Of a stretch of 64,000 nucleotides of DNA, positions 10,544 through 16,914 are shown in pieces. Both the position numbers and the translations under genes were made by a program. Source of the DNA: an uncultured delta proteobacterium (lineage in GTDB: Bacteria > Desulfobacterota > WTBG01 > CAIYCZ01 > CAIRTM01); assembly GCA_963804955.1 (NCBI GenBank), contig CAWDSQ010000030.1, positions 64,001 to 128,000 on the forward strand, given 5' to 3'. The notes under the pieces are model-generated. The model was not told the DNA's origin, did no database searches, and saw only the letters and a program-made list of their open reading frames with translations. How positions within the stretch are numbered: the stretch's first letter is position 1; every line of letters begins with the position of its first letter.

Positions 10544-11686
10544 ATGGCGAACAATCAAATGATCCAAACCGAGGCAAAGAATAGCACAGGTAAGCAGGTT
10601 TTGTACATATCCCTTGAACTGTCCAACAAGAAATGGAAACTGACGTTTGGGGACGGGCAACGCAGGAGGGAGCGAACAATAACATCAGCAGATCTTGAAG
10701 AGTTTAAGGAAGAGCTGGTCAAGGCCCGGAAGCATTTTAGACTGGATGAAGATTGCGCCATATACAGCTGTTATGAATCGGGACGAGACGGGTTTTGGAT
10801 ACATCGGTATTTGGAGAGCATAGGGATAAAGAATATCGTGGTGGACTCGGCCAGTATCGAAGTGAACCGGCGGCATCGGCGGGCCAAGACGGACCGGGTA
10901 GATGGGTTAAAGTTGTTAACCATGCTGATACGGCACTTGGGAGGAGAGCAGAAAGTCTGGAGTGTGGTACGGGTTCCGACACAGGAACAGGAAGATGAAC
11001 GGCGACTCAACCGAGAGAGGGATCGGCTGTTAAAGGAACGGGGAGCACATGTAAGCCGGATAAAGTCGCTACTGATATTGTATGGGATACATGCAAAGGT
11101 AGGCAGTAAATTTCTGAAGCTGCTTGAGGAAGTGCGAGCCTGGGATGGCAGCAAACTGCCAGAGTATATCGTGCAGGAGATGAAGCGGGAGTATGAACGG
11201 ATAGGGGTGCTGGACCTGCAGTTGAAGCAGATCAATGAAGAGAAGAAGCGGCAGCTTGCGGCAAGTCCTGAACAAATGCGCAAGGTAAGCAAGCTTGCCC
11301 GGATACGGGCAATTGGGCCGATCAGTTCATGGGATTTGATCTATGAGTTTTTTGGCTGGCGGGAATTCAAGAATGTGAAGCAGGTGGGAGGTGCAGCAGG
11401 TCTTGCGCCAATGCCCTACAGCAGCGGGGATATGCAGATTGAGCAAGGGATAAGCAAAGCGGGCAATCGGCGGATCCGAGCTTTGCTGATAGAGTTAGCC
11501 TGGGGATGGCTGAGATGGCAGCCTGGCAGTAAGCTAAGCACGTGGTTTCATGAGCGCTTTGGAGGGGGCAACAAACGAATGAGGCGAATAGGGATCGTGG
11601 CGCTGGCCAGAAAACTGCTCATAGCGCTGTGGAAGTATGTTGATCACGACATCGTGCCGGAAGGCGCGATACTAAAGATGGCATAA
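10544..11686 (+). CDS. IS110 family DEDD recombinase/transposase
   Basis: CYESGRDGFWIHRYL, AKTDRVD, GLAPMPYSSG (catalytic Ser region), ISKAGN, VALARKL. Confidence 0.95.
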   Translation: MANNQMIQTEAKNSTGKQVLYISLELSNKKWKLTFGDGQRRRERTITSADLEEFKEELVKARKHFRLDEDCAIYSCYESGRDGFWIHRYLESIGIKNIVVDSASIEVNRRHRRAKTDRVDGLKLLTMLIRHLGGEQKVWSVVRVPTQEQEDERRLNRERDRLLKERGAHVSRIKSLLILYGIHAKVGSKFLKLLEEVRAWDGSKLPEYIVQEMKREYERIGVLDLQLKQINEEKKRQLAASPEQMRKVSKLARIRAIGPISSWDLIYEFFGWREFKNVKQVGGAAGLAPMPYSSGDMQIEQGISKAGNRRIRALLIELAWGWLRWQPGSKLSTWFHERFGGGNKRMRRIGIVALARKLLIALWKYVDHDIVPEGAILKMA

Positions 11687-12093: not shown

Positions 12094-12480
12094 TCAGTCA
12101 TACATGACGGTAATCTCGCCTTCGTCAATTTGCTCCGAACGGCATTTAGGACAACGAGGGGGAGCGTCGAGGCAATACCTCCCGCCACACCTGCATGTTC
12201 CAGCAATAAATTCGATTCCTTTGTGATATTCATCTTCGGATATAGGCTCAACTTTTGTAGTCTCTCGTATAGCCTTATCATGTTCCGCACTTGCAACACA
12301 ATACGGTCCCGGCAGTCCTTTTAAGTAGCGCAAATGCAACTCTCCAAGTTCATCAAAACCTATAGACTTCGTCTTTCCACAATTCTCACAGCGAACGAGG
12401 TGAAAGTAAAACCCCCCACCGTGGTCAACAGTGAAAGTGTTACCGCATTTGCGGCATTTGGCTTTAACTTGATGTCCCAT
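12094..12480 (-). CDS. Hypothetical zinc-ribbon protein
   Basis: 128 aa with CRKC, CENC, CRC and CPKC motifs; SD GGAGGAGG upstream. Confidence 0.75.
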   Translation of the reverse strand: MGHQVKAKCRKCGNTFTVDHGGGFYFHLVRCENCGKTKSIGFDELGELHLRYLKGLPGPYCVASAEHDKAIRETTKVEPISEDEYHKGIEFIAGTCRCGGRYCLDAPPRCPKCRSEQIDEGEITVMYD

Positions 12481-12559: not shown

Positions 12560-13117
12560 TTAGTTCTTGGGCTCGATGAGCCACGCCGATAGTCCCTTAA
12601 ACGGTGGGAGCACCGCACCAGAAAATCCTCCGTGGGCAATGATTGCAAATGTGCGGGTTCGTAAGCAGGCAGGCATTGCTTTCGGAACCATTCCATAACG
12701 CATGAAGTAGCCTCCTCGCGAGTGAAATTTACCATTCAGGAAAAACTGGAACTCTTCAAAACCCGATAACGGTCCCCAGCTTATGAACCGAACGAAGTCG
12801 ATGTGTATAGTTTTCTTTAGGAACTTAAAATTGCAGTGAATGTGCCGCGGAGTTGGATTAGGACTCGCCGAGGGATCAGAGCAAGGATAGTTTGCATCGT
12901 CTTCAGCAAGTTCCCAGGTAACATCCAGAGGAATCCTTTGCCAGCTCTCACCGTCGATAGTCATTTTAAACATCTTTTTTGTCTTAGTCTTCTGTAACTG
13001 TTCGAAGGACGGACAATCACCAAACCACGGCGGATAATGCTCATATCGTCTTGAAGGGTCGTAAAAGAAAAGGCCGTTTTTTTCTACTGACAATAAGTTA
13101 TTTAGTGGGCATTTCAT
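12560..13117 (-). CDS. Hypothetical protein directly downstream of tandem riboswitch
   Basis: 185-aa ORF with SD AAGGAG after the second terminator; no recognisable family. Confidence 0.55.
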   Translation of the reverse strand: MKCPLNNLLSVEKNGLFFYDPSRRYEHYPPWFGDCPSFEQLQKTKTKKMFKMTIDGESWQRIPLDVTWELAEDDANYPCSDPSASPNPTPRHIHCNFKFLKKTIHIDFVRFISWGPLSGFEEFQFFLNGKFHSRGGYFMRYGMVPKAMPACLRTRTFAIIAHGGFSGAVLPPFKGLSAWLIEPKN

Positions 13118-13143
13118 GGCAGATTAATCTCCTTTCTCAAAAC

Positions 13144-13182
13144 AAAAAACCTCGGGAGCTGGAACAGCCCACGAGGTTTTTT
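13144..13182 (-). terminator. Intrinsic terminator following SAM-II-like aptamer B (copy 1)
   Basis: CCTCGTGGGCTG-TTC-CAGCTCCCGAGG-TTTTTT on minus strand. Confidence 0.75.
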
Positions 13183-13235
13183 GGCTGTTTAGCACCTTGG
13201 TAAGGCGGTTGCAAGTAACCCTAAATCGGCCCGCC
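13183..13235 (-). promoter_or_regulatory. SAM-II-like riboswitch aptamer B (copy 1)
   Basis: GGCGG-GCCGATTT-AGGGTT-AC-TTGC-AA-CCGCC-TTACCAAGGT-GCTAAA-CAGCC fits the SAM-II pseudoknot consensus. Confidence 0.75.
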
Positions 13236-13258
13236 GTAAAACAATTGTATTTTAAAAT

Positions 13259-13287
13259 AAAAAAACCCCGTGCTTTGGGGCGCGGGG
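13259..13287 (-). terminator. Intrinsic terminator following SAM-II-like aptamer A (copy 1)
   Basis: CCCCGCGC-CCCAAA-GCACGGGG-TTTTTTT on minus strand. Confidence 0.75.
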
Positions 13288-13305
13288 TTAAATACACTTT
13301 TAACC

Positions 13306-13357
13306 GGCCTTTAGCACATTTATATAGCGGAGCAAGTAACCAAACTAAATCACCGCT
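13306..13357 (-). promoter_or_regulatory. SAM-II-like riboswitch aptamer A (copy 1)
   Basis: AGCGG-TGATTT-AGTTTGGTT-AC-TTGC-T-CCGCT-ATATAAATGT-GCTAAA-GGCC; upstream TTGACT-16-TATGTT promoter (13392-13365). Confidence 0.8.
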
Positions 13358-13446
13358 TTGTAATAACATAGTCATTCTTTCAAACAAGTCAATAGCCGCT
13401 GCCCGGCCAAGGCCATTTTTCCCAAATACCAATAGAAATCTGTCCG

Positions 13447-14163
13447 TTACAACAACTTCCCAAAATCCTGCCAACTGGTATGCAGCGAGTCTTTATTTAG
13501 TGTTTCCGCTAATATTTTTAGATACTTCTTTCGTGGTATCGACTTTCCTCCGAGACTCAACATATGGTCAGTTACGGCCTGGCAATCGATAAAATCAAAC
13601 TCAAGCTGCAGCAGTACACGGCACAGGGCAAAAAACGCGAGCTTTGAAGCATTCGGCCGCTGGTGAAACATGGATTCACCGAAAAAAGCTCTTCCAAATG
13701 TGAGCCCGTAGAGGCCACCGCAAAGCTCGTCTCCATCGTAAACCTCAACGCTGTGCGCTATGTGCAGATGGTGCAGTTTGGTATAGACAGCCGGCATATC
13801 GCCATTTATCCAGGGGGCAGTCTGAAACGTCCTTTCCACCCGAGCGCATTGTTCCATAACCCTGGTAAAATTTCTATCAAAGCTGACTGTCAGGCTGGTA
13901 TTCCGGATAAAACTGCGCAGGCTCCGGGAGAGATGCAACTCGGATGGATACAAAACCAGGCGTGGATTCGGAGAATACCAGGGAATAGGATCCAGTCCGG
14001 ACCAGGGGAATATCCCCCTTGTGTAAGCTTCAACTACGGTGTTAACAGTTATTTTGCCGCCCAGGAAAACCAAACCATCCTTCCGCGGCTGTAATTTTTC
14101 CGGAAACTGTGCTGGGATTTCTCCACGGCGGATATCTTCGAGAATTGTCTTATAGTATTCCAT
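13447..14163 (-). CDS. aat: Leucyl/phenylalanyl-tRNA--protein transferase
   Basis: AYTRGIFPW, WYSPNPR, AHSVEV, GGLYGL, FFGESMF, NASKLA, IDCQ. Confidence 0.95.
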   Translation of the reverse strand: MEYYKTILEDIRRGEIPAQFPEKLQPRKDGLVFLGGKITVNTVVEAYTRGIFPWSGLDPIPWYSPNPRLVLYPSELHLSRSLRSFIRNTSLTVSFDRNFTRVMEQCARVERTFQTAPWINGDMPAVYTKLHHLHIAHSVEVYDGDELCGGLYGLTFGRAFFGESMFHQRPNASKLAFFALCRVLLQLEFDFIDCQAVTDHMLSLGGKSIPRKKYLKILAETLNKDSLHTSWQDFGKLL

Positions 14164-14230: not shown

Positions 14231-14867
14231 TTACAAATCGCCTTCCTGTAATACCCGACCAAGACCATTTTTCTCCAGATACCAATAGGTAAAGTGTTTA
14301 GACAGCCAGCTTGCAGCTTTTTCTTCAGCCAGTGGCCGATAACGAGACGTGTAAATAACCGGTATGCAAAAGCGTGCTTCCAAAGCATCAAGTGTTCCCG
14401 AAACAGCATTGGGGTGTGCCTCTGTGCATTCATCATCATATGGCGACTTTATATCTTCATAGCTCGCCTCTACCAGTAAAGCACGCCACCGGTACTGAGC
14501 CAATTTTTCGCACATTTTGAAAAAGCGTGACCGCTGCTGTATCAAGGTTGTTATGAGGTCGGAAAGTGTTTTGCGCTCAATTACGAGCAAGTCTTCCATG
14601 CCTTCTATGCTGTAATCACCAACGTCAAGCTTCTGCCTTCTTTCGCCGGCAATCCAGTTGGGAAACCTGCTGAAATCAAGAGGGAGTTTTTCACGGGTAT
14701 CGACCAAAACAACAGGCTTGGGAATTTGCCGTGTAATGCTGTGACCGCCACGCTTCACAATTAATCGGCCCGATGGCGGTGCTACAGGATTTTGGTGTTG
14801 TATCGGTTCATCAAGTTCATCCTGATCGGATTCTTCGACATCTTGAGGAGATCTGATCTTTTGGCAT
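14231..14867 (-). CDS. ERCC4/XPF-like nuclease domain protein (likely 1-nt error just after ATG 14867)
   Basis: VDTRE, LDVGDYS, IERKTLSDL motifs; SD AAGGAG before ATG 14867. Confidence 0.85.
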
Positions 14868-14894
14868 ATACACTCCTTTATATCGTTATAGTGG

Positions 14895-14972
14895 TTATAG
14901 AAACAGAAGAACCCCCAGTGCGGCAAGAGCAATACCGAAACCTGCAAGACCAATCAATATATCTTCTTTCAT
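14895..14972 (-). CDS. 25-aa single-TM peptide MKEDILIGLAGFGIALAALGVLLFL
   Basis: Manual translation; purine-rich SD-like GAAGGGGG upstream; lies between the DraG-like and ERCC4 genes. Confidence 0.45.
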   Translation of the reverse strand: MKEDILIGLAGFGIALAALGVLLFL

Positions 14973-15029
14973 GTAGCCCCCCTTCTATCCAATTATAAGC
15001 CTTTAATGGCAGTATACTGGTTTAGCCGG

Positions 15030-15807
15030 TCATTTGTTCTTACAATATTTTTCCGTGAATGCCTTCGTGATATCTCCAAGCCGGGCGTCCAGTACTTCGT
15101 AGACTTTTTCCTGAATTAAGGCCGGAACGCCTTTGTAGAAAGCCTGCGCTATGCCGCCAGTAATACAGGTGAGCGTATCGGTGTCTCCACCCAGCGATAC
15201 TGCCGTTCTTATGGCATCTTCAAAATCGCTGGAATCAATGAATGCCCGTATTGCCTGCGGAACAGTGCCCTGGGACGAAACATCGAAACTGTATGTCGGC
15301 CGGATCTCGTCCACGTGTTTGCTCAGATCATAGCCGAACCATGCTTCAATCGTGTTTTTGATCTCAGCCTTTGACTTCCCTGTCCGGGCAAGGAATATCG
15401 CAGACAGCGGTTGCTTGCCCTCCCTTGATTCCTTCAGGATGATTATGGGTAATCTCGGTATACTCCTTTGCCTTTTGCAGTACCGTGTCCAGATCATCAA
15501 AAGCATACCCCACAGGGCTGATGCGCATGGCAGCGCCATTGCCCCAGCTGTTGTAGGGTTCTGATGACGTGCTTTGCGCCCATTCATCAAAGTTGCCGCC
15601 ATACCCTCTGTGCGGATACCAGCAGTAGAATTTCTTGAGATTGTCGATATATGGCGTTCCGGTCAAAATAGTATCGGCCAGTGCGATTGTCAGAACCGAG
15701 TCGTCTGTGAAATGACATTTTTTAGAGAACAACTCAAACTGTTTGGTCTTGATGTTGTCCCACTCGTACACCGAACCGATGATGTCACCTGCTATTGCAC
15801 CTATCAT
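15030..15807 (-). CDS. ADP-ribosylglycohydrolase (DraG/ARH family), frameshift near 15420
   Basis: GAIAGDIIGS, FTDDS, SWGNGAAMR, THNHPEG; C-terminal GGDTDT in the second frame. Confidence 0.92.
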
Positions 15808-15920
15808 TTATTCACTCCGTCCTAAACTAAAAATTTATTATGTTGCTCATTGCATCATCAAAAGGCGCAATCAGCATATCTGCAAACATCTGACTGGTAA
15901 GCATGCTCATCTCAATACCG

Positions 15921-16579
15921 TCAGTGAAGCTTGTGATCTTTCCTGTCATTGAGATCAAAATCCATCTTCTTTTTTTTGTTACTTCGATAATCAGTGGTGT
16001 TGCACGAGAGGACTAGCAAAAGCATCTCGTGTACCTTTAGCGTCCTTGACATATGCAAGGTTTGCCTGCTTGTCTATGCCGTATGACTCTGCGTCCCGAA
16101 TCGCATCTAAATCAGAGCTGAGAAAAACAAACTGCCAGTCGTTCTTTTTTGTTTTTTCGTCTATCATTTTCACGATCTGAGCTCTGTTGAACTCGCGGCT
16201 GGCGTTCTCCTGCCCGTCAGTGACGATGGCCAGCACGACTTTTGAAGGCTGTGATTTTTCATCAATGCTTGCCAAGAGAGGCTTCCAGGTCGTTTATGCC
16301 TCTTCCGATCGCGTCCAGCAGCGGCGTGGAGGCCCGCGGGACATATACATTTCGGTCCAGTTTAGGGACTTCAGCAACAGGGGCAAAGCGGCAAATAACC
16401 TCATAGGGGTCCTGGGAGTCAAACTGAACGAGTGTCATTGTGGCCTTCCCGGGCAACTTTTGCTGCTCATCCAAAAATGCGTTGAAGCCGCCGATAATGT
16501 CATCGCGTATGCTTTCCATGGAACCGGTCCTGTCAAGGATAACGGTTATGTGCGTGTAATCGTTTTTTTCATTTTTCAT
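15921..16579 (-). CDS. von Willebrand factor A domain protein (frameshifts near 16265 and 16010)
   Basis: ILDRTGSM MIDAS motif, TPLLDAIG, IVTDGQENASREF, WQFVFL. Confidence 0.85.
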
Positions 16580-16735
16580 GGCATTCTCCTTTGTAAAACG
16601 TGGTTTATTGTCTCTTGTCTTTCCCTGTGATTTTCTATGTTCTGAATAAAGTATAGCGGTTGGTTTTGTCATATAAGGACAAAACCAAATTTTTTATCTT
16701 AGAGTCTGTACGAAAAGCCAAAGCACCTTCGTTTT

Positions 16736-16807
16736 GTCATTCTGAGCGCAGCGAAGAATCTCGTCGTTTTAATGAATTCAGAGATCCTTCACTTCGTTCA
16801 GGATGAC
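16736..16807. repeat. Palindromic intergenic repeat
   Basis: GTCATTCTGAGCGCAGCGAAGAATCTC...GAGATCCTTCACTTCGTTCAGGATGAC. Confidence 0.7.
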
Positions 16808-16914
16808 ATTAAATGACTTTTCATACCCGTTCGTGCTTAAACTCAACATACGGTGACCCGGATAACAATATTGAGATCAAGATATTTTGTTTTTTTTGCC
16901 TCCTTTTTTACAAC

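Follow-up and report, generated by a model that had tools for sequence, protein, structure and literature searches.

The textbook role of S-adenosylmethionine (SAM) riboswitches is to regulate the synthesis of methionine and SAM, and those of the SAM-II class are usually found in Alpha- or Betaproteobacteria and Bacteroidota. Serial riboswitches are also known for other ligands, as in the tandem thiamin pyrophosphate (TPP) riboswitch with two expression platforms of which Bacillus anthracis provides an example. For SAM-II, a survey of tandem riboswitches describes 44 tandem examples, some with one terminator per aptamer, and calls them pseudo-cooperative (Sherlock et al. 2022, RNA Biol 19:1059, PMC9481103). 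Here we describe a tandem leader on the minus strand of a 64,000-nucleotide (nt) stretch of DNA from an uncultured delta proteobacterium (assembly GCA_963804955.1, contig CAWDSQ010000030.1, positions 64,001 to 128,000), which we call the window. This leader carries two SAM-II-like aptamers, 1A and 1B, each followed by its own intrinsic terminator, upstream of a gene encoding an orphan protein of 185 amino acids (aa). We consider it highly probable that these are two complete serial OFF riboswitches of SAM-II type, and that they represent a conserved cassette of one A-type and one B-type unit (A+B) placed in front of orphan cargo genes.

A preliminary description of this DNA had proposed, in this order, a promoter, aptamer A, a hairpin with seven U, aptamer B, a hairpin with six U, a Shine-Dalgarno sequence and the 185-aa gene, and the minus-strand sequence bears out this order. 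The aptamers and their parts were read from the sequence, with the following result for leader 1 and its cargo open reading frames (ORFs):

13392-13365, minus strand: putative sigma-70-like promoter of leader 1 (-35 TTGACT at 13392-13387, 16 nt, -10 TATGTT at 13370-13365)
13357-13306, minus strand: aptamer 1A, A-type, SAM-II-like
13357-13353 and 13330-13326, minus strand: the two P1 arms of 1A, AGCGG and CCGCU
13351-13347, 13341-13332, 13315-13310 and 13309-13306, minus strand: motifs of 1A, GAUUU, GGUU-ACUUGC, GCUAAA and GGCC
13287-13259, minus strand: intrinsic terminator of 1A, GC-rich stem CCCCGCGC/GCACGGGG at 13287-13266 and U7 at 13265-13259
13235-13183, minus strand: aptamer 1B, B-type, SAM-II-like
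13235-13231 and 13208-13204, minus strand: the two P1 arms of 1B, GGCGG and CCGCC
13227-13223, 13220-13211, 13193-13188 and 13186-13183, minus strand: motifs of 1B, GAUUU, GGUU-ACUUGC, GCUAAA and AGCC
13176-13144, minus strand: intrinsic terminator of 1B, 12-pair stem with one mismatch at 13176-13150 and U6 at 13149-13144
13136-13129, minus strand: Shine-Dalgarno sequence GAAAGGAG, with the ATG of the first cargo gene at 13117
12560-13117, minus strand: 185-aa orphan ORF, first cargo gene (from the ORF list)
12094-12480, minus strand: 128-aa Cys-rich (zinc-ribbon-like) ORF, second cargo gene (sub-threshold Pfam matches to HypA and Zn_ribbon_PF0610)

Units 1A and 1B are built alike. Both have a P1 of 5 base pairs (bp), a loop with GAUUUAG, GGUU and ACUUGC, and an A-rich linker followed by GUGCUAAA, and the sequence elements previously named as SAM-II hallmarks (P1, GAUUU, UUGC, GCUAA and the A-rich linker) are present. 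The proposed pseudoknot would pair GGUU with GGCC in 1A and with AGCC in 1B (helix P2a), and ACUUGC with GC-U-AA in both units (helix P2b). Unit 1B starts after a spacer of 23 nt behind the first terminator. A simple terminator scan listed terminator 1A only and missed that of 1B, whose stem contains a mismatch; folding confirmed it. The promoter was proposed from its match to the consensus (9 of 12 positions in a consensus scan).

Three occurrences of the signature GATTT..TTGC..TGCTAAA were counted in the window, where 0.03 were expected from shuffled sequences. Through the third match we found the whole tandem leader a second time; it agrees with leader 1 in 87% of alignment columns over the part that begins with the first aptamer and ends with the Shine-Dalgarno sequence:

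17163-16915, minus strand: leader 2 (promoter, 2A, terminator, 2B, terminator, ribosome-binding site)
17163-17158, minus strand: -35 element TTGACT of the leader 2 promoter
~17125-17075 and 17057-17030, minus strand: aptamer 2A and its terminator
~17006-16954 and 16947-16915, minus strand: aptamer 2B and its terminator

All four units of the window thus sit in two tandem leaders at 13.1-13.4 kb and 16.9-17.2 kb, which are unlike each other in their promoters and downstream sequences. Unit 2A carries GAGUU in place of GAUUU, a variant that was also seen in three related loci (L229, L206 and L192).

When short stretches were searched in E-value mode, the best riboswitch matches of all four units were the two SAM-II models of Rfam, RF00521 (SAM_alpha, gathering cut-off 36 bits) and RF01726 (SAM-II long loop, gathering cut-off 44 bits), with 14-22 bits:

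1A: RF00521 15.6 bits, RF01726 14.4 bits
1B: RF00521 not listed, RF01726 21.7 bits (E 0.13)
2A: RF00521 14.8 bits, RF01726 15.4 bits
2B: RF00521 16.7 bits, RF01726 20.8 bits

In both models, the positions to which GAUUU, CUUGCA and GCUAAA align are upper-case in the consensus. Three scans of short stretches with a limit of E <= 10 returned nothing for the SAM-V model RF01826. Further sub-threshold Rfam matches (His, Leu and Thr leaders, toxic sRNA, mir-186 and others) covered the terminators only and were rejected.

Relatives were sought by scanning one genome of each species for an exact pattern, which yielded 55 loci, and with our own covariance model (R1), built from 6 units and applied with an acceptance threshold of E <= 1e-4. 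R1 confirmed 42 of these loci, with 67 units in all, and the remaining 13 were chance matches. In the window, units 1A and 1B scored 69.1 and 71.4 bits with this model. Twenty-four of the 42 genome loci showed a tandem arrangement. According to their record titles the relatives belong to Syntrophales, other Thermodesulfobacteriota, Omnitrophota, Blastocatellia, Zixibacteria, Cryosericum and others. The source assembly (4.26 Mb, 87% complete) contained the four window units only, and a genome of the same genus (G002) contained one A+B leader. Among 17 genomes of the family, R1 detected units in the source assembly (G000) and in G002 only, with two weak matches that were coding sequence, and a loose pattern applied to 41 related genomes returned mostly chance matches, with true units in G002 only. 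Searches of the source genome with RF00521 and RF01726 gave other weak matches, of which the four inspected were coding sequence and were rejected. In viral contigs the pattern matched 108 times, and neither P1 nor context was convincing in any of these matches.

GAUUU, ACUUGC and GCUAAA were kept in nearly all of 71 units. P1 was paired in 99.7% of cells, in an alignment that was fitted to the P1 of the model and therefore favours it somewhat; 64 distinct sequences contributed, and compensatory changes were found at four of the five pairs. The closing pair was A-U, C-G or G-C, for example, and the third pair C-G or U-A. None of 500 shuffles reached the observed covariation score, and slid controls collapsed. 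For the pseudoknot, the four P2b pairs (UUGC with GC-U-AA) were possible in 99.6% of cells and did not vary. P2a, defined as the four loop bases before ACUUGC with the RGCC right after GCUAAA, was paired at 3.24 of 4 positions on average, compared to 2.76 +/- 0.07 with shuffled tails. At its third pair a C was accompanied by a partner G and a U by a partner A or G, i.e. pyrimidine and purine varied together. As far as sequence comparison goes, these data are consistent with a pseudoknot, short of proof. A hairpin with a U-run followed 64 of the 68 genome and window units with enough downstream sequence, and 48 of 52 B units from metagenomes.

The genes behind these relatives were informative with regard to the ligand. 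Single A-type units preceded metK in four Syntrophales-type genomes (L181, L188, L207 and L219), and relatives also preceded metK in L192 and, with the first of two leaders, in L229. Further units were located before MetH (L190) and before sulfite reductase or DUF2061 genes (L221, L230 and L187). In Blastocatellia, tandem units of two similar copies preceded a ThrC-like pyridoxal phosphate enzyme and a ThiS-like carrier, in seven loci by the survey of genes and in nine by the grouping of tandems. In one locus ('Ca. Tritonobacter lacicola', L196, 2760-3050, minus strand) a SAM-II-like unit and its terminator have a SAM-I aptamer (RF00162, 48 bits) behind them on the same strand, and the ORFs downstream of both had no Pfam family. 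Since relatives precede classical genes of the SAM and sulfur regulon, the ligand of these units is likely SAM. The survey of genes behind homologous leaders that the preliminary description had called for thus gave metK, MetH, ThrC-like/ThiS and sulfite reductase genes for the relatives, and mostly orphan genes for the A+B leaders. Together with the best Rfam matches and the P1 covariation, the genes of the relatives support the core of that description, namely two SAM-II-like aptamers with their own terminators before an orphan gene.

The fixed composite of A followed by B was present at 15 genome loci and in the window. Three features set B apart from A: the P1-L1 junction (3 nt in B, 1 nt in A), the nucleotides that follow CUUGC (AR in B, U in A) and the L3 linker. 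In all 15 A+B genome loci, B-type units were only ever second, behind an A-type unit. A B-specific pattern recovered 55 loci from metagenomes, and in 51 of these the model placed an A-type unit 110-130 nt further upstream; another two were cut by the contig start. Homology between loci extends over the whole leader and includes the 'GAAAGGA' ribosome-binding region after terminator B, and in nearly all loci other than leader 2 a ribosome-binding site and an ORF follow within 40-110 nt of terminator B. The two switches tolerate separation, as indicated by insertions between A and B of ~120 nt in G002 (hairpin-rich; L035, 4750-4890) and of ~430 nt in L264.

The cargo of these leaders was diverse. 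Among the first genes of the 15 genome loci, one encoded a MetK with a 110-aa N-terminal extension (L192) and one a ClpX-like AAA protein (L182), while 11 were without Pfam family and two remained unclear. The metagenome loci provided 49 first ORFs in 19 similarity groups. Representatives of 16 groups were scanned against Pfam (three groups of 58-67 aa were left out), and 14 of them had no family at E <= 0.001; one contained TPR repeats and one had a sub-threshold SHOCT match. None of the 16 representatives matched a Pfam family related to methionine, SAM or sulfur. Two types of cargo were recurrent, a protein of ~100 aa in 13 loci and a family of 9 loci with a domain that also occurs in the N-terminal extension of the L192 MetK. 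L229 (minus strand, 4448-2021) carries two leaders with 1.4 kb between them; a 418-aa MetK follows the first, and the second precedes a 270-aa orphan whose N-terminal domain resembles this same extension. A search of the L229 cargo protein in the ESM Atlas gave scores below 0.9 throughout, and the viral GIY-YIG-like clusters that were returned are leads only. Among 38 cargo and neighbouring proteins searched against PADLOC-DB 2.0, only the ClpX-like AAA protein of L182 was matched, by generic AAA matches.

In the neighbourhood of the A+B leaders we found a Vsr protein with a C5 methylase (Dcm+Vsr, L177), a C5 methylase (L185), GmrSD (L193), a SIR2-like protein (L206), a resolvase with a primase-like protein (L197), a PIN protein with an ADP-ribosylglycohydrolase (L210), a transposase (L205), AbiEi (L235), NERD-UvrD (L273), GIY-YIG (L263) and a PD-(D/E)XK nuclease (L246). 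A+B loci are thus often found beside restriction-modification or mobile-element genes, which we take as a lead only and not as a demonstrated enrichment. Taken together, the A+B leader very probably represents a conserved cassette in front of varied uncharacterised cargo, in horizontally acquired regions of many uncultured anaerobes. About half of the A+B leaders (L177, L182, L183, L201, L206, L210 and L191) further showed a conserved UUGACA(A) after the U-tract of terminator A. This motif is not found in the window leaders. It resembles a -35 element, but no acceptable -10 element follows, and an internal promoter was rejected by eye.

With regard to the switching logic, each unit would be an H-type pseudoknot aptamer with a 5-bp P1, a U-rich L1 loop (GAUUU) and its own terminator downstream, in which the 3' tail (GUGCUAAA and RGCC) folds back to pair with ACUUGC and GGYN of the P1 loop. 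In folds of growing transcripts, the aptamer 3' tail paired with terminator sequence before the 3' arm of the terminator was made. In 1B and 2B the competing pairing was AAACAGCC:GGCUGUU, extended by a GGUGC pairing, and the predicted anti-terminator of 1B was present in transcripts cut at 78-84 nt. In 1A and 2A, GUGCU of the aptamer tail paired with AGCAC of the terminator 3' arm, together with GGC:GCC. These pairings occupy P2a and P2b nucleotides and exclude pseudoknot and terminator alike. Because the anti-terminator uses the nucleotides of P2a and P2b, a pseudoknot stabilised by the ligand would free the terminator, and the folding of growing transcripts predicts OFF switches. With ligand bound, most likely SAM, the tail would be locked in the pseudoknot, the terminator would form and transcription would stop. 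At low SAM, the tail would be free to act as an anti-terminator by pairing with a segment of the terminator, and RNA polymerase would read on. A transcript would have to pass two independent OFF switches in a row, so that read-through probabilities would multiply, and the 185-aa and zinc-ribbon genes might be expressed at low SAM only, with low leak and a steeper, 'pseudo-cooperative' dose response.

Several observations weigh against this reading and have to be set beside the evidence above. No match at gathering scores was obtained in the 64-kb window with 4227 Rfam families, the SAM-II scores of the units are sub-threshold (E 0.06-9 on short stretches), and none of the aptamers in 20 related loci reached an Rfam gathering score either. 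The preliminary description had named the lack of a covariance-model hit, along with the lack of any ligand-dependent change, as the outcome speaking against it, and at Rfam gathering scores the former was indeed observed (0 matches). The Rfam test formally failed, yet the resemblance to SAM-II is specific, and membership in SAM-II therefore rests on comparative evidence and not on Rfam. Within the comparative evidence, the alignment behind the pair counts leans towards P1 as described, the invariance of P2b provides no proof by covariation, and the signal of P2a is modest. Full-length minimum free energy folds always contained the terminators, which is common among OFF switches under kinetic control, and the switch logic therefore rests on kinetic, co-transcriptional reasoning. 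Among the sequencing runs listed for this DNA there was none of RNA, and the DNA runs had shares of at most 0.13. With regard to the ligand, the cargo of the window leaders and of the A+B leaders has no link to methionine or SAM except for the one MetK fusion. B-type units were never seen alone, which leaves the shared core nucleotides as the sole basis for the ligand of B. The host metK gene (G000:C27, L287, 2560-2760) is preceded by a near-consensus promoter (TTGACA ... TATAAG), and in its leader of ~30 nt we found no riboswitch.

A rival reading is that A senses SAM and B has drifted to another ligand, such as S-adenosylhomocysteine, methylthioadenosine, decarboxylated SAM or a methionine-unrelated signal, so that cargo expression would require two conditions. 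Such a two-input gate would agree with the strict position of B behind A (15 of 15 genome A+B loci and 51 of 55 metagenome loci, besides the two cut by contig ends), with the lack of any B unit standing alone before a methionine gene, with the three consistent differences of B from A named above, and with a cargo unrelated to methionine or SAM. Ligand-switched variants of SAM aptamers are known, with a change from SAM-I to spermidine described in PMC10853860. However, GAUUU, ACUUGC and GCUAAA are identical in A and B and align to the conserved core of both Rfam SAM-II models. B moreover resembles the classical consensus at least as much as A does (CUUGCAg; L3 of the UUAAAcAAg type) and scores slightly higher with RF01726, and one A+B leader (L192) precedes a MetK fusion. 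We therefore think a two-input gate improbable. If B did sense another compound, the cassette would represent a new ligand class derived from SAM-II.

Two serial SAM-sensing switches also have to be weighed against the idea that the leader mainly serves as a source of small terminated trans-acting RNAs, or as a protein-dependent attenuator, with control in cis being secondary. Leader 2 fits this idea in having a promoter, both aptamers and both terminators with no ORF behind the ribosome-binding site, and PMC9373788 documents a small RNA that derives from a SAM-II riboswitch leader, namely RZ of S. meliloti. But the surroundings of leader 2 are decaying and contain split genes, so that loss of its ORF is the simpler reading, and a ribosome-binding site with an ORF follows terminator B in nearly all other loci; we regard a main role in trans as very improbable. 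Least credible, and already disfavoured, is a resemblance to SAM-II by chance or duplication, in which the repeats would not be ligand-sensing RNAs. The Rfam scores below threshold and the two window leaders, which are recent duplicates, would be expected under it. Compensatory P1 changes among 64 distinct relatives from several phyla, the coupling of terminators to the units, and the repeated position of relatives before metK, metH, thrC-like and sulfite reductase genes all argue against it.

The first cargo gene of leader 1 offers few clues. Its 185-aa product had no match in Pfam, PADLOC or PHROG, and only seven relatives were found among 5.8 billion proteins. The structure prediction proposed earlier did produce an all-beta AlphaFold2 model (predicted local distance difference test score 62.7), but no convincing structural match came from it: Foldseek returned nothing from the PDB at E <= 0.001, and the best VIA-align match (Z 6.1) was to a generic beta-sheet and was set aside as uninformative. 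In G002 the homologue of the 185-aa protein is encoded third or fourth in the operon of the leader, behind 280-aa and 84-aa orphan genes, and this other position indicates that the cargo has been reshuffled. The second gene, previously described as a zinc-ribbon gene, is a 128-aa ORF that is indeed Cys-rich, but the scores for the Pfam families HypA and zinc ribbon stayed sub-threshold.

Both leaders are located in a foreign-looking, low-GC stretch of ~7.5 kb (~10.3-17.8 kb) with a G+C content of 0.42-0.50, compared to 0.59-0.62 in its flanks. No tRNA gene was found near it. In the 87%-complete source assembly SAM-I riboswitches were not detected, and SAM-type riboswitches were present in this low-GC island only. 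Other genes of this region are:

10544-11686: putative IS110-type transposase ORF, bounding the low-GC stretch (named from its translation, not from Pfam)
13447-14163: leucyl/phenylalanyl-tRNA protein transferase gene, directly upstream of leader 1
14231-16672, minus strand: genes downstream of leader 2, vWA-like, ADP-ribosylglycohydrolase and ERCC4-type nuclease (Pfam)

Behind the ribosome-binding site of leader 2 there was no ORF, and the next genes start ~240 nt downstream. Within 15030-16672 (minus strand), the vWA-like gene (phrog_7371) is split into overlapping ORFs of 136 aa and 94 aa and the ADP-ribosylglycohydrolase gene into overlapping ORFs of 147 aa and 190 aa. The ERCC4-type nuclease matches phrog_3490 in PHROG. 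The same-genus genome G002 encodes an intact vWA-like protein of 230 aa (L035, 2925-3617) and an intact 213-aa version, and its vWA-like and nuclease genes are intact without a leader in front. Because an intact vWA-like version exists there, the split ORFs of the window, vWA-like and ADP-ribosylglycohydrolase, are probably frameshifted pseudogenes. Between leader 2 and the vWA-like gene, at ~16735-16812 on the minus strand, we also noticed by eye an inverted repeat (GTCATCCTGAACGAAGTGAAGGATCTC ... GAGATTCTTCGCTGCGCTCAGAATGAC) that resembles repetitive extragenic palindromic (REP) elements or miniature inverted-repeat transposable elements (MITEs).

In uncultured bacteria that include Syntrophales, Omnitrophota, Zixibacteria and Cryosericum, the A+B cassette is wired to dozens of domain-less protein families. 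With SAM as the ligand, these orphan genes would make up a hidden low-SAM regulon, which would give an experimental handle on their function. It is further conceivable, though doubtful, that A+B acts as a portable 'low-SAM alarm' that keeps orphan genes on mobile or defence islands silent at normal SAM and releases them when SAM collapses. Circumstantial leads in this direction are the defence and mobile neighbours, the island with an extra MetK in L229, the cargo domain shared with the MetK extension and the restriction of SAM switches to the island in the source assembly, with none at the host metK. If true, the trigger could be a phage SAM-degrading enzyme that disarms SAM-dependent restriction-modification, or a failing methylation capacity. 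The cargo would then provide back-up defence, counter-defence or SAM-rescue functions, and the cassette would be the first riboswitch-based guard of a phage-targeted cofactor. A literature search returned no relevant link of SAM riboswitches to defence islands, or of SAM-II to hypothetical proteins on mobile elements, and on riboswitches with SAM lyases in an anti-phage setting it gave only an apparently unrelated paper. That the aptamer pair is missed at gathering thresholds suggests a reseeding of the Rfam SAM-II models.

Compared with described systems, the units share with SAM-II (RF00521/RF01726) the short P1, the U-rich GAUUU loop and the CUUGCA and GCUAAA segments that would form the pseudoknot, and the proposed GGYN:RGCC helix would lie where the classical GGCC:GGCC helix is drawn in the SAM-II description of PMC9373788. 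Many relatives have a terminator and control methionine, SAM or sulfur genes. They differ in scoring below gathering and in occurring in other taxa than the usual range of SAM-II, and the window copies are without methionine genes. The tandem TPP riboswitches likewise consist of two serial independent OFF switches for one ligand, with a more digital response (PMC9481103, Table 1), but their aptamer class and ligand are different and their cargo is a known thiamin gene. The SAM-II/SAM-V and SAM-II/SAM-I-IV tandems reported in PMC9481103 are also serial SAM sensors, the first acting by termination, as might be compared with L196. In the SAM-II/SAM-V tandems as presented there the second unit controls the ribosome-binding site, whereas here both units end in terminators. 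Closest are the SAM-II/SAM-II tandems of the same survey, with two complete aptamers per leader and own intrinsic terminators in some. The preliminary description had considered the double gate before non-methionine genes atypical; this gene context is real and more general than seen at first, but a double SAM-II terminator gate is already among the arrangements catalogued in PMC9481103. The tandems in that catalogue were found with standard models, while here the subtypes are fixed as A then B and the cargo is orphan. As far as its sequence can tell, the RNA is best filed as a SAM-II-type variant below Rfam gathering, in a known tandem double-terminator architecture. The supplements of PMC9481103 may list some of the loci; what appears to be new is the fixed pairing of A and B and the regulon of orphan genes in acquired regions.

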